IMG/VR virus record: IMGVR_UViG_3300020156_000023
Coordinates: 1-64,000 of that record
Strand: one strand, 5' to 3'
Length of the DNA: 64,000 bases
Origin: a virus
Part shown: one piece after another, positions 2,178-6,800 of the stretch
How the letters are laid out: each line of letters starts with the position of its first letter
Numbering within the stretch: position 1 is the first letter of the stretch
Notes under the pieces: model-generated
Told to the model about the DNA's origin: nothing
What the model saw: only the letters and a program-made list of their open reading frames with translations
Databases searched by the model: none
Translations under genes and position numbers: made by a program

Positions 2178-2501
2178 ATGGCTAATACAACAGAAGACAC
2201 AGCACAAGCTAACACTACAGCAGCTACTTATTTACAACTTATCTCTAAAGATGAGAAACAAGTAAAAGTTGAAGGTCTAACCATTAAAGCTCAAGAGGCT
2301 TCATTAGAAGTTTCAAGAGAGATTATGAATCTTAAGTCATCTATAGCTAAGAAAACTACTGAACTTGAGGCATCTAAGAGACAAATCCCTTATGATGTTA
2401 GGAGTGAGTACAAACTTACTAATGAGCTTCAAGAACTTAACAATAGGTTAGAGTTTGCTCAAGCTATCAAGTCTGAAAGATTTTCAGATGCTAATATATA
2501 A
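2178..2501 (+). CDS. Hypothetical coiled-coil protein
   Basis: 107 aa, heptad-rich helical sequence immediately upstream of the Ubl gene. Confidence 0.7.
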   Translation: MANTTEDTAQANTTAATYLQLISKDEKQVKVEGLTIKAQEASLEVSREIMNLKSSIAKKTTELEASKRQIPYDVRSEYKLTNELQELNNRLEFAQAIKSERFSDANI

Positions 2502-2556: not shown

Positions 2557-2976
2557 ATGAGAAAAGTTAAAATTTATTCAACAGTAGGTACTTCAGGTAC
2601 AATTGATACTAATGTAAGGACTTTAGGAGAGCTTAAACCTTTACTAAGACAACAAGGTATCAATTATGATGGTATGAAGATGTTAGTTGGAGAAACAAGG
2701 AATGAGTTAGGAGTTGATGAGGCAGTTCTGCCTGAAGGAGATTTCAAACTTTATCTAATGCCAGAGAAAACTAAATCTGGAATAGATACTGATGGGATAT
2801 TAGATGCATTGGATGAAGCTTCTGAAGCTATTGAGACTGCAAGAGCAGCAGTTATCAGAAGTATAAATGATAGACCAGCAACTAAGTCTATGTCCTATGA
2901 AGACCAGGAAGCTATGGAAGACCTTAGAAGGCTTGCAGGTGGTGGTTCTTCTTCAAGAAGTAATTCTTGGGATTAA
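2557..2976 (+). CDS. Ubiquitin-like (beta-grasp) protein precursor with C-terminal extension
   Basis: Residues 1-75 follow a beta-grasp pattern (RKVKIYS strand, TLGELKPLL helix, LPEGDFKLYLMP last strand) ending in KTKSG75, followed by a 64-aa extension. Adjacent to E2-like, JAB and E1 genes. Confidence 0.75.
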   Translation: MRKVKIYSTVGTSGTIDTNVRTLGELKPLLRQQGINYDGMKMLVGETRNELGVDEAVLPEGDFKLYLMPEKTKSGIDTDGILDALDEASEAIETARAAVIRSINDRPATKSMSYEDQEAMEDLRRLAGGGSSSRSNSWD

Positions 2977-2984
2977 TATTAATT

Positions 2985-3015
2985 AACGGGGCTAATAAAG
3001 CCCCGTTTTTCTTTT
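2985..3015 (+). terminator. Rho-independent terminator between Ubl and E2-like genes
   Basis: Stem AACGGGGCT / AGCCCCGTT, loop AATAA, followed by TTTCTTTT. Confidence 0.8.
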
Positions 3016-3028
3016 AATTTACTAAAAT

Positions 3029-4168
3029 ATGGATACAAGAGAATTACAATTATCTGGTAAAGCAAGGGATTATGCGTGGATGTTAGAGCAGTTTAACCAA
3101 GGTAAGTTAACAATAGGAGGAGTTCCTCTTAATAAAGTACATTTTGATAAATTAAGAGTATTTATTAAAGTTGCTAATGAAATTTATGAGAATGCTTGGG
3201 ATTTAGAAGTACTGCTTTATGGTAATAATATAGAAATCAAAGGTTTAGTTATTCATTTTCCTGAGATTACCATAAGAAATAGAAGTAATAGGAGACATAC
3301 TATAAAAGATTTGTTTGTAAAGTTACCTTTTTCTATTAATGGAGATACACTAAAAGTAAACTCACCTCAAGGTGGTAGAACCACTTGGACTCATGCAGAA
3401 TGGAGTTCAGATTATTCACATAGTCACTTATCTGGTATTAACAAAAGTTCAGGAGCACTCCCGCTTTATTCAGGCTTCTGTACAGGTTCAGGACATATTA
3501 ATGATTATATAGCTGATATTTGTAGTGGAGAATTTTCAGAAGAGCTTGTTACAAGCTTATTAGTACAAATAATGGGTCTTGCCTCTTATGAATCAATAGA
3601 GGGAACTCCTTATAGAACTATGTCAAGTATTTATGATAGAAGTGTTTCAAATGGTTCATTTTATATGGCACGAGATGCATATAAAACACTATATGATTTG
3701 CTTATGAACCATTATAAACATTATACAAAAGAATTACCTCCTATAGAATTTGGTGTAGAAACAGGTAAGTATTTTGTCAAAGATAATGATAAGTTTGATG
3801 AGTTTTTAAACTCTGTACCACTTACCCATGAGCAGAAACAAAGATATTTAGCTTTTATAGATAATACAGGAACTGCGTGGAGATATGGAGCCTCTCCTAC
3901 TGGAACTACAGTAGATACAAGCTTATATACTCCATATATTTTTAGAAGTCAGGAATATAGTGCTAACATAATATATCAAAGAAGAGAAGAAACAGAGGTT
4001 GAGTATAAAGTACACCCTCAAATTAGAAATCAAATAAAAAAGGAGATTGAATATGAAATCAACAGGAAAACAATTAGAAAGAGTACAATTGACAGATACA
4101 CAAATAAAGCTAGTGATGCCAGAAAGAGTGCTAAACCAAGTAAAGTACCTGTGCAGGCAAATAGCTAA
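3029..4168 (+). CDS. Prokaryotic E2 (UBC-like) conjugating enzyme candidate
   Basis: H131-S-H133 followed by FC151TG resembles the HPN/HPH...C signature of E2 folds. Sits between the Ubl and JAB/E1 genes. Confidence 0.6.
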   Translation: MDTRELQLSGKARDYAWMLEQFNQGKLTIGGVPLNKVHFDKLRVFIKVANEIYENAWDLEVLLYGNNIEIKGLVIHFPEITIRNRSNRRHTIKDLFVKLPFSINGDTLKVNSPQGGRTTWTHAEWSSDYSHSHLSGINKSSGALPLYSGFCTGSGHINDYIADICSGEFSEELVTSLLVQIMGLASYESIEGTPYRTMSSIYDRSVSNGSFYMARDAYKTLYDLLMNHYKHYTKELPPIEFGVETGKYFVKDNDKFDEFLNSVPLTHEQKQRYLAFIDNTGTAWRYGASPTGTTVDTSLYTPYIFRSQEYSANIIYQRREETEVEYKVHPQIRNQIKKEIEYEINRKTIRKSTIDRYTNKASDARKSAKPSKVPVQANS

Positions 4169-5384
4169 GGTAGAGTGGTCAGGAGTACTTTTCTATTCTG
4201 TAGAAGGTTCTATTAAAGAACCAGGTAAGATGGTACTTACCATAGAAGATATATTACCAATGCATAAAGGTACAAGTGCTTATACTGAATATACTTTTGA
4301 TGAGAGGGTAGTAGACTATATGATGGATAATGAAGTAATGGAAAAAGGTTGGAAAATGGGTCATGTGCATTCCCATAACACTATGGGTGTATTCTTCTCA
4401 GGTACTGATTGGAGTGAATTAGAGGATAATGCTCCTAACCATAATTTCTATCTGTCATTGATAGTAAATAACTTTATGGACTTCTGTGCTAAAGTGTGCT
4501 TTATAGTAGATTGTGATGAGAGTAAGGAATTTAGTTTCTCAGGTAAAGATGAGAATGGCCAAAGATATGTTTATACAACTGAATCCTATGGGGTTCCAGA
4601 TAAAAAGTTAGTTGTTTATGATTGTGCTATAGAATCCCCTAAGAATGAAATAGTAGTTGATGATAGTTTTGCTTCTAAAGTGGACCACATCATAGCAGAA
4701 GCTGAAAGAGTAACTGCCAGAACTACATTAACAACTGGAACTACAAGCCTTAAGAACTTTTTAGATAAAGAGAAAGGAGAGAATAGTAGTGTGGGAAAGT
4801 CTGGTACGCACCAGAGGAATGGAACGAATACTGGTGGTAAGAAAGGTAAAGGATGGTCAAGATGGCAAGACCAAATGGATGCATGGTCTGATAAATCTTG
4901 GCATCAAAAGATTGATGATGAACCTAAAGAAGAGATTAAAGCCTCTAAGAATTTTAAAAATGGTGGTCCTAATAATGAAGATGTTCTTTTGATGCATGTA
5001 AGTGATAGAGCTTATATTGATGCTATTGAAGCATTTTCAATGTATGTAGTAAATGGTGGTAATTCTACTGAAGAGTATGGAGACATAGATGATATTACAG
5101 AAATGTATATGCAACATAAAGTATCTGGAAAAGCTTTAGCATCCCATATATTAGAAAACTATTCTGATATGTATGATGCATTCTTTGAAAAGCTTGAAGA
5201 TAGGGATGATGCTAAACTATTTATAGATATTACAAAAGACCTTATAGATAATTTAGAATCTGAATGTGAAGTAACATTGTTGCCACAACAAGTAGAATTA
5301 ATAAGACCTGTTATATTTGCTTTAGAAAATATGATAAGAACTTTTGAGGCAGCAGCTGAAGGAAAAAATAAAATGATAATATAA
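4047..5384 (+). CDS. JAB/JAMM (MPN+) metallo-isopeptidase with long C-terminal extension
   Basis: Exact JAMM motif E43...H108-S-H110-x7-S118-x2-D121 (VEWSG...HVHSHNTMGVFFSGTD). The true start may be ATG 4053 or 4116. Confidence 0.9.
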   Translation: MNMKSTGKQLERVQLTDTQIKLVMPERVLNQVKYLCRQIAKVEWSGVLFYSVEGSIKEPGKMVLTIEDILPMHKGTSAYTEYTFDERVVDYMMDNEVMEKGWKMGHVHSHNTMGVFFSGTDWSELEDNAPNHNFYLSLIVNNFMDFCAKVCFIVDCDESKEFSFSGKDENGQRYVYTTESYGVPDKKLVVYDCAIESPKNEIVVDDSFASKVDHIIAEAERVTARTTLTTGTTSLKNFLDKEKGENSSVGKSGTHQRNGTNTGGKKGKGWSRWQDQMDAWSDKSWHQKIDDEPKEEIKASKNFKNGGPNNEDVLLMHVSDRAYIDAIEAFSMYVVNGGNSTEEYGDIDDITEMYMQHKVSGKALASHILENYSDMYDAFFEKLEDRDDAKLFIDITKDLIDNLESECEVTLLPQQVELIRPVIFALENMIRTFEAAAEGKNKMII

Positions 5385-5385
5385 T

Positions 5386-6090
5386 ATGACAGAATTACAT
5401 TCAAGTAGATTTAAAGATGCTCCATGGTTTCCTAAAGAGGAAACTTATGTAGTAATTGGAGGTTCAGGAGGAATAGGTTCGTGGTTAACTATATTACTTG
5501 CCAGAGCAGGATTCCTACCTATTATATATGATTTTGATACTATTGAAGAACATAATATAGGTGGGCAACTTTTTGGTAAGAAACATATAACTATGGCTAA
5601 AGTAGATGCTCTTAAAGAAATTGTAAAAGAGTTTACTGATACAGAAGTTACTGCAAATAATGAGAGATATACTTCAGAAAGTATGTCACATCACTATGTA
5701 TTCTCTGCTTTTGATAATATGAAAGCAAGGAGAGATATGTTTGATGCATGGAAAGCTTATGTAAAAGAATATCAGGAAGAGAACTTAGATAAAGAAAATT
5801 ATCAGGTTCCTGTATTCATAGATGGTAGGCTTACTATGGAACAATTAACTATCTTCTGTGTTACACCAGATAAGGTAGAGGAATATGAGAAACATTTATT
5901 TGATGATTCTGAGGTTGAGGATGCACCATGCACTCTTAAACAGACATCACATAGTGCAGCTATGATAGCTTCACATATGGTAGGTTTCTTTACAAACCAT
6001 ATGGCTAATAATGCTGTAGGGGAAGATGATAGAGCATTACCATTTAGGTGGGAATACTTTATACCAATTAATTATATAAATGAAGAATAA
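5386..6090 (+). CDS. E1-like ThiF/MoeB-family adenylyltransferase
   Basis: GGSGGIG nucleotide-binding loop, DFDTIEEHNIGGQ, AKV, FDNMKAR, IDGR, N-terminal Arg8 and candidate catalytic Cys182 (DAPCT). Confidence 0.9.
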   Translation: MTELHSSRFKDAPWFPKEETYVVIGGSGGIGSWLTILLARAGFLPIIYDFDTIEEHNIGGQLFGKKHITMAKVDALKEIVKEFTDTEVTANNERYTSESMSHHYVFSAFDNMKARRDMFDAWKAYVKEYQEENLDKENYQVPVFIDGRLTMEQLTIFCVTPDKVEEYEKHLFDDSEVEDAPCTLKQTSHSAAMIASHMVGFFTNHMANNAVGEDDRALPFRWEYFIPINYINEE

Positions 6091-6800
6091 TGATAATGAA
6101 TAGAATTAGTGATATAATTCATTTTAGAATGCCTTTTAATAGGGTAGGTAGTCATCCTGAAACAGGGAGAAGAACAATGTTACCTGGTTTCCCTGAAGAA
6201 GATTTTAGAACTGGATTAATAGGAACTTCCGACTGTAACACATTTATTCCAATCATTGCTTTAATGAATCATACTTTATTAGAGTTTGAAGATACAAAGG
6301 TAATAGAGTATTCTATGCCTATCTCAAGTCATGTATATAGTGCTACCAGACAATATAATACATTATTAGATGGTTTAGTGAGGGCTTCAAGACCAGTAAA
6401 GTTTGATTACAGGCTACAAGGTGTTTCACATACTTTATATGCTCATAGAGGTGTATTGTATAGTCAAGATGGCAAGATATTGATGTGTCTTGCTGTTGAT
6501 AGAGATTATGGTTTCACAATACCAATAAGTGAGTCAGAGCCTAATATAGAAATGGATACTACTAAATTTCTGTTGTTCATGACATCAGATTTTGATGCAC
6601 CTGAATATAAAAATGTTAAAAAAAAGCTTGAATCTTTATATGTAGAGAAATGTAAAGCTCATAACATTGATATAGTATATACTTCAAGGGTAGAACAATG
6701 GTTATTTAAAAATAACTTTAAGGTACCTGCATTCAAAAGTGTGATAGAAATGAATAAACATCTTAAAGAGGAAGTTCCTAAAAATCTTTTAATGGTTTAA
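6090..6800 (+). CDS. Hypothetical protein translationally coupled to E1
   Basis: TAATG stop/start overlap with E1; 236 aa; no motif recognised. Confidence 0.7.
   Translation: MIMNRISDIIHFRMPFNRVGSHPETGRRTMLPGFPEEDFRTGLIGTSDCNTFIPIIALMNHTLLEFEDTKVIEYSMPISSHVYSATRQYNTLLDGLVRASRPVKFDYRLQGVSHTLYAHRGVLYSQDGKILMCLAVDRDYGFTIPISESEPNIEMDTTKFLLFMTSDFDAPEYKNVKKKLESLYVEKCKAHNIDIVYTSRVEQWLFKNNFKVPAFKSVIEMNKHLKEEVPKNLLMV

Follow-up and report, generated by a model that had tools for sequence, protein, structure and literature searches.

The phage ubiquitin-like protein (Ubl) described here is probably made as a precursor that is cut at Gly75 by a JAB protease encoded beside it and then used for tagging by an E1 and an E2-like protein, the sequence LRRLAGGG near the end of its tail not being a second processing site. 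The DNA analyzed, here called the window, is a stretch of 64,000 nucleotides (positions 1 to 64,000 of IMG/VR record IMGVR_UViG_3300020156_000023). It is part of a crAss-like phage genome and the gene for the precursor (pro-Ubl) has phage replication genes as neighbors. The record of the protein is on a contig of about 100 kb. The features of the precursor were as follows.

2557..2976, + strand: pro-Ubl gene, encoding a ubiquitin-like precursor of 139 aa (ORF; homologue searches)
2557..2781, + strand: beta-grasp (ubiquitin-fold) domain, residues 1-75 (AlphaFold2 model; ubiquitin matches)
2767..2781, + strand: KTKSG ending in the invariant Gly75, the predicted site of JAB cleavage and E1 activation (family motif)
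2782..2976, + strand: acidic tail of 64 aa, residues 76-139, predicted to be removed (tail variation in the family)
2788..2868, + strand: first tail helix, residues 78-104 (DSSP on the model; pLDDT 95-97 across residues 81-100)
2893..2946, + strand: C-terminal amphipathic helix motif (S113, E115, D116 ... L126) which includes LRRLAGGG at 2923-2946 (conservation; helix 114-129 in the model)
2965..2973, + strand: C-terminal tip S-W-D, with an aromatic residue at the very end (enrichment of Trp and other aromatics)

The AlphaFold2 model of pro-Ubl, built on a 150-sequence alignment, had a mean pLDDT of 86.3 and a pTM of 0.52. Strands at residues 2-8, 13-18, 40-44 and 63-69 and a helix at 23-32 make up a beta-grasp fold. 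Residues 1-70 were modeled with a pLDDT of 90-94 and the linker that follows the beta-grasp was less confident, with a pLDDT of 71 in the block 71-80. Foldseek matched the model to ubiquitin, SUMO and NEDD8, among other Ubls, with E values of about 1e-3 or below, a TM score by target of about 0.7 and an rmsd of 2.4-2.6 A across about 75 columns. VIA-align gave Z scores of 8.3-9.4 for the same three proteins. Model residues 2-74 aligned to ubiquitin 1-76 (VIA-align, 1ubq: Z 8.4, rmsd 2.6 A, 70 residues aligned), so Gly75 lies at about the position of ubiquitin Gly76.

No sequence-level family match to pro-Ubl was found in Pfam, NCBIfam, PADLOC or the PDB sequences. The sole family match was the uncharacterized phrog_15560, covering residues 2-81. 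The family itself is large, with 771 homologues at E<=0.01 (90% clusters) and 1172 representative clusters at E<=1e-3 in an exhaustive profile search. The first-pass annotation of this DNA had described a beta-grasp ending at KTKSG followed by an acidic helical tail, and both the ORF and the model bear this out. Its positions were exact: KTKSG is K71-G75 at 2767-2781 and LRRLAGGG is L123-G130 at 2923-2946.

Gly75 was the only invariant column across 150 diverse homologues, aligned with members as distant as about 26% identity. The motif P-x-K-[TV]-K-[SA]-G was recognizable at about residue 75 in 151 of the 153 proteins examined, a set made up of the top representatives, the window protein and two homologues from isolate phages. 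Counted by position, Gly was present in 151/151, Ser or Ala at P2 in 148/151, Lys at P3 in 144/151 and Pro at P7 in 132/151. The residue directly after the glycine varied and was Ala in 38, Ser in 24, Val in 15 and Leu in 14, with Asn, Gly, Ile, Tyr and others also found. The K-S-G end of the beta-grasp was kept in the homologues of Kehishuvirus PhiCrAssBcn9 (225 aa) and Flavobacterium phage Fpv1 (289 aa), which are about 30-36% identical to pro-Ubl. Among 29 close relatives the entire N-terminal domain was invariant, K71-T72-K73-S74-G75 included.

The comparison supports Gly75 as the probable functional glycine of a masked ubiquitin-like precursor. It counts against this reading that the end of this beta-grasp, K-S-G, has a single glycine, whereas ubiquitin, SAMP and ThiS end in Gly-Gly. 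The first-pass annotation had proposed a precursor whose conjugatable Gly75 is masked by the tail, with the distal LRRLAGGG as an alternative end. The comparison of homologues supports the masking and the choice of Gly75 but not the alternative end. It had also suggested a homologue alignment as a check, and here the KSG glycine proved to be present in all 151 proteins with a recognizable motif and the distal Gly-Gly to be common in the close subfamily only.

The tail beyond the glycine ranged from 1 to 280 aa with a median of about 100 (151 representatives). Short tails of 1, 5 and 13 residues are known. The tail of 5 residues, NEKKH, belongs to an Ubl homologue of 82 aa from locus L031, which is internal to a viral contig of 98,405 bp. 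A spacer of 123 bp follows this Ubl gene and is itself followed by the E2-like, JAB and E1 genes. An enzyme set that is complete beside a tail of 5 aa indicates that a long tail is dispensable for the pathway. L031 fits a pathway in which the tail is discarded and the beta-grasp, with Gly at its end, does the work. The two shortest representatives (87 aa and 90 aa) may have been cut off at contig ends, so the short-tail argument rests on L031. No split, fused or longer homologues were returned by a search among proteins of 245-2000 aa, a blank that reflects the sensitivity limit of that search since Ubl forms of up to 354 aa were returned by the profile search.

No homologue ended exactly at the glycine. 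A tail of zero length was found in 0 of 151 representatives and a search among proteins of 30-75 aa returned no family member shorter than 76 aa. The mature form is thus never directly encoded, and the same would be seen if the protein were never cleaved. Pro-Ubl could then be a two-module adaptor in which the beta-grasp and the C-terminal helix bind different partners and Gly75 acts as a hinge, with the JAB and the E1 acting elsewhere. Such an adaptor would suit the absence of any member encoded with a free terminal Gly, the conserved motif at the end of the tail and the high confidence with which the tail helices were predicted. It is nevertheless unlikely. Tails of 1, 5 and 13 residues exist and the 5-residue form of L031 has the E2-like, JAB and E1 genes beside it. 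The seven residues before Gly75 are conserved in the manner of a ubiquitin tail while the residue after it varies freely, and the cassette holds no other Ubl candidate. ThiF-type E1 enzymes such as ThiF, MoeB and E1 need a free C-terminal carboxylate, which also counts against a protein that is never cut. Removal of the tail at Gly75 remains the preferred reading.

The Ubl gene of the window sits between primase and uracil-DNA glycosylase (UDG) genes and genes for replication or recombination. The features that follow it were as listed here.

2985..3007, + strand: terminator-like hairpin with a T run behind it, separating the Ubl gene from the enzyme genes (9-bp stem with 6 GC pairs)
3029..4168, + strand: E2-like (UBC-fold) protein of 379 aa with an HSH...FC151 motif (model; VIA-align; conservation)
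4047..5384, + strand: JAB/JAMM metalloprotease with a long C-terminal helical region (JAMM residues; PADLOC)
5386..6090, + strand: minimal ThiF-type E1 adenylating enzyme of 234 aa (Pfam ThiF, 1.4e-16)
6090..6800, + strand: protein of 236 aa that starts within the stop codon of the E1 gene (homologues in 14 of 20 loci)

The order primase, (UDG), Ubl, E2-like, JAB, E1, (unknown) was observed to be the same in 20 distinct viral loci, a count which includes L023, whose contig ends before the E1 gene. The carriers are crAss-like and Flavobacterium phages with genomes of roughly 100 kb and in these the cassette adjoins the primase. By similarity of the E1, 74 phage records have the cassette, among them DAC15, DAC17, the PhiCrAssBcn phages and 29 Flavobacterium phages. 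The set in crAss001 runs from gp79 to gp75 and is annotated as hypothetical proteins, "metalloprotease domain" and "thiamine biosynthesis protein ThiF". Three terminator-like sites were present in the region compared to 0.3 expected, and the hairpin at 2985-3007 may raise the ratio of modifier to enzymes. A 107-aa ORF predicted to form a coiled coil lies between the UDG and Ubl genes of the window (2178-2501). It is kept in the seven closest loci and is absent from more distant cassettes.

The catalytic residues of the JAB and the E1 were intact and the candidate ones of the E2-like protein conserved. In the E2-like protein N84, S132, H133, C151, G153 and E188 were invariant and H131 nearly so (18 homologues). 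Its model had a pLDDT of 84.7, and about 40 of the 50 best VIA-align chains were E2, UEV or RWD domains (Z 4.4-5.8), with the bacterial BubB and Cap2 entries among the matches. Foldseek returned weak UEV/E2 rows (E 0.2-0.6) and Atlas a weak lead to Prok-E2_D. There was no sequence-level link to solved structures among the PDB sequences. With structural scores as modest as these, the predicted UBC fold makes this protein E2-like, not a proven E2. In the JAB, residues E43, H108, H110, S118 and D121 were invariant (17 homologues) and form the E...HxH...S...D zinc and catalytic motif. The PADLOC JAB model matched at E 9.6e-4 and Pfam Prok-JAB marginally, at E 0.06. In the E1, residues G26, G28, D49, D51, D110, R115 and C182 were invariant (18 homologues), and these include the nucleotide loop and the Mg-binding Asp. 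The PADLOC matches of the E1 were to the adenylation part only of CBASS-type E1-E2 fusion models.

Homologues of the 236-aa protein were 216-580 aa in size. None were detected in L002, L031, L033, L035 and L036, and in L023 the contig ends earlier. No family or fold lead was obtained for this protein from Pfam, Atlas or fold searches.

Several cassette genes showed insertions or extensions in other phages. In Fpv1 (KU599877.1; L001:8056-10348) the JAB is split directly upstream of the HxH motif into ORFs of 117 aa and 314 aa. Within the insert are a gene for a LAGLIDADG homing endonuclease, read from the opposite strand (Pfam 3e-10), and a match to the group I intron model RF00028 (43.4 bits, E 1.6e-9) that is just below the Rfam gathering score. 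As a result of the split the two halves fall into two PHROGs families, phrog_21448 and phrog_16107. At L025:6404-7406, and likewise in L026, the E1 is interrupted after the conserved N...Q segment by about 280 bp without an ORF, and the L025 insert also matched RF00028 (46.4 bits, E 8.4e-11). The presence of introns in the catalytic motifs of two cassette genes suggests that the genes matter to the phages. The Kehishuvirus E1 (L002:9238-10347; L037:4548-5699, which is crAss001 gp76) has about 135 extra N-terminal residues with no Pfam match. The E2-like homologue of L035 is 677 aa long and has a long N-terminal extension without a match.

A beta-grasp protein, a ThiF-type E1 and a trimming JAMM protease are also what is found in the JAB-trimmed sulfur carriers. 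A protein of the ThiS, MoaD, CysO or QbsE kind would be trimmed by the JAB and adenylated by the E1 to give a thiocarboxylate for phage thio-modification. The best sequence matches of the E1 are to the ThiF and MoeB families, GenBank labels it "thiamine biosynthesis protein", and carriers of this type are known from QbsE/QbsD and CysO/Mec+ (PMC1779556). We consider this function very unlikely for pro-Ubl. In those carriers 1-2 residues are removed, the end is Gly-Gly and there is no E2-like protein, whereas the phage cassette always includes a protein with a predicted UBC fold and an invariant Cys. The phage beta-grasp ends in K-S-G and had no Pfam match to ThiS or MoaD, and no rhodanese, cysteine desulfurase or sulfur-insertion enzyme was recognized in the cassette. 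The Ubl model was as near or nearer to ubiquitin, SUMO and NEDD8 than to TtuB, the one carrier listed among the matches.

The distal LRRLAGGG had been read in the first-pass annotation as an end like that of ubiquitin or ISG15. A Gly-Gly was present in the last 25 residues of 100/120 close relatives but in the last 20 residues of only 2/146 wider-family representatives, all 146 of which keep G75. Even close relatives replace the distal Gly-Gly, for example with SGQ, CNS or GES. In the close subfamily the tail end E-D-x3-4-hydrophobic-x-[ED]-[LIV] was found in 120/120 proteins and was followed by R-L-x-x-G-G in 96 of them. Judged by these alignments, LRRLAGGG is better read as the close subfamily's version of a C-terminal helix motif that occurs across the family. 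Its place inside this conserved helix motif indicates that it is not a second ubiquitin-like end, and the resemblance to LRLRGG is best regarded as a coincidence. From the known geometry of E1-Ubl complexes, a site about 55 residues past the beta-grasp would be too far away for presentation to an E1 or a JAB in the way of ubiquitin. A JAB cut at LRRLAGG/G, yielding a Ubl with a helical tag and a new Gly-Gly end to be activated, is very unlikely to be correct: R-L-x-x-G-G does resemble the end of ubiquitin and ISG15, but against it stand the rarity of the Gly-Gly in the wider family, the variants without Gly in close relatives, the position of the site at the end of a predicted helix and a short-tailed L031 form without any such site. 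The further suggestion that such a tagged Ubl oligomerizes was not supported.

The tail of pro-Ubl contains 14 Asp and Glu compared to 7 Lys and Arg, and in the AlphaFold2 model its last residues are disordered beyond the helix at 114-129. Net negative charge was found in 81% of the family tails, in which the commonest residues are Glu, Lys, Ala, Leu and Asp. In the 29 close homologues the tail diverges apart from three invariant positions, E115, D116 and L126, and a fourth, S113, that is nearly invariant (at least 90%). The end of the tail is conserved more widely. An amphipathic motif (hydrophobic-x-x-hydrophobic, then L/F/M/I, then D or G and a hydrophobic residue) lay within the last 22 residues of 48/148 diverse tails compared to 4.3 (maximum 10) in shuffled sequences. 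An aromatic residue was present within the last 4 residues of 66/146 diverse tails compared to 29.6 ± 4.6 in shuffles. Trp was found within the last 5 residues of 109/120 close homologues. No comparable C-terminal acidic-aromatic end, as in SSB tips, was found among the other 48 ORFs of the window.

The long tails (L001, L002, L024, L025 and L033-L035) start with a recurring L/M-S-x-x-E-[LIA]-x-x-x-[IVL]-K helix in the first 40 or so residues after the Gly. Pfam recognized none of ten different family tails. A reading of the recurring helix as HeH/SAP-like was dropped when these ten tails gave no SAP, HeH or Rho_N match at E<=1. The long tails may carry a small extra domain.

The end of the tail is under selection and the tail is therefore not a mere cap. 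The conserved end most likely serves for docking to a cassette protein or to a target. We put forward more tentatively that the tail has a role beyond that of a cap, as an address label or as a second functional product, a proposal we regard as possible and less than even in probability. As an address label, the C-terminal helix and aromatic tip would dock the precursor on the target or on a cassette enzyme, for instance on the extra C-terminal domain of the JAB, and cleavage at Gly75 and activation would happen on site. As a second product, the tail would be freed by cleavage as an acidic helical peptide that acts as an independent effector in the replication module. This second form would be akin to the ubiquitin-ribosomal protein fusions, in which two products come from one precursor. 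Either docking by the tail or release of an effector would, if true, be a mode of Ubl targeting not previously described for prokaryotes or phages. The conserved end could also be used as bait for finding the partner.

The course of processing that we infer from the fold, the conserved motif, the gene order and the catalytic residues is as follows. The phage Ubl would be made as an inactive pro-protein in which K-T-K-S-G75 is the counterpart of the C-terminal tail of ubiquitin. The co-encoded JAMM/JAB protease would cut the peptide bond between Gly75 and Ile76, and the 234-aa ThiF-type E1 would adenylate the freed carboxylate of Gly75. The Ubl would then pass by thioester, probably through Cys182 of the E1 and then Cys151 of the E2-like protein, to the target. 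The tail of 64 aa would be a pro-region with a freely evolving body, and its conserved end would dock to a partner or the tail would be released.

A complex of JAB residues 1-210 with full pro-Ubl was predicted with a score of 0.57, and the best of 3 controls scored 0.18. Of 80 solved complexes 58 reached the pass mark, as did 2 of 110 mismatched pairs, and passes at <=0.60 comprised only 7 of the 80 solved complexes plus both of the passing mismatches. The runs agreed in at least 82% of contacts and the pLDDT of the partner was at least 73. The prediction listed no interface. JAMM-Ubl complexes have already been solved, and the pass may therefore reflect likeness to them. The predicted complex lends weak support to the pairing of the JAB with pro-Ubl and adds little beyond the strong prior given by gene order.

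Among the known systems closest to the phage cassette are the ISG15-like anti-phage operons of bacteria, BilABCD (Chambers et al., PMC10557695; Hor et al., bioRxiv 10.1101/2023.09.04.556158). The phage cassette matches them in its four parts and in how these are ordered, with Ubl first and then E2, JAB and E1. Both kinds of Ubl have one conserved Gly, at the C-terminal end, which can be masked, and in Bil the Ubl is preprocessed by the JAB: BilC cleaves BilA after the conserved single Gly, also in a BilA-GFP fusion (PMC10557695). BilA overhangs are 2-9 aa long and occur in a minority of homologues, whereas the phage Ubl always has an overhang, which is typically 50-280 aa and has a conserved end motif. 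The phage cassette is found beside the primase in phages of lytic type whereas Bil is found in bacterial defense islands. The phage E1, at 234 aa, is minimal and too small to include a separate CYS domain such as BilD is described to have. Among the PADLOC defense-system models there was no match for the Ubl or the E2-like protein, a marginal match for the JAB and a partial match only for the E1.

A Ub-like domain followed by a C-terminal domain is also found in TAPI (gpI) of phages lambda and T1, for which a 2006 study predicted release through a cut at the conserved Gly by a neighboring JAB (Iyer, Burroughs and Aravind 2006, PMC1779556). The JAB-NlpC/P60 protein is TAPK in that work. In TAPI, as in pro-Ubl, the Ub-like domain has a conserved Gly at its end. 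TAPI differs in being part of a tail-assembly module, next to TAPK and TAPJ, without an E1 or E2, whereas pro-Ubl is in a replication module with an E1 and an E2-like protein. A linker rich in Gly leads to the C-terminal domain of TAPI, which is globular. No tail-assembly family match for the Ubl was found in Pfam or PHROG.

The phage modifier resembles the eukaryotic fusion precursors in being translated with a C-terminal extension. In ubiquitin-eL40, ubiquitin-eS31 and FUBI-eS30, and in the SUMO, NEDD8 and ISG15 precursors, a C-terminal extension must be removed by a protease. What is removed from the ribosomal fusions is itself a functional protein, 52-80 aa in length. There is no sequence relationship to the phage protein, which ends in K-S-G, not G-G. 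The phage extension is variable, acidic and helical and not a conserved ribosomal protein, and the predicted processing enzyme is a JAMM metalloprotease and not a cysteine DUB.

No publication on the phage cassette or on the Ubl tails was found in the literature. New in the present analysis are the test of the two glycine sites across the wide family, the L031 form, the C-terminal motif that explains LRRLAGGG and the prediction of a Ser-Gly remnant. The last follows from the K-S-G end of the Ubl, as trypsin should leave Ser-Gly on modified lysines. For experimenters the reactive residue to follow is Gly75 and not the ubiquitin-looking LRRLAGGG.

Until now, complete tagging sets of the ubiquitin type have been studied as bacterial defenses against phages, and here a virus carries one. 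The carriers belong to a large and abundant group of phages, with crAss001, DAC15 and DAC17, all cultured gut phages, and the FpV phages of fish pathogens among its members. A modifier that is always made with a long and variable pro-region differs from all characterized prokaryotic Ubls. The pro-region may reveal how these phages control or direct tagging during replication.
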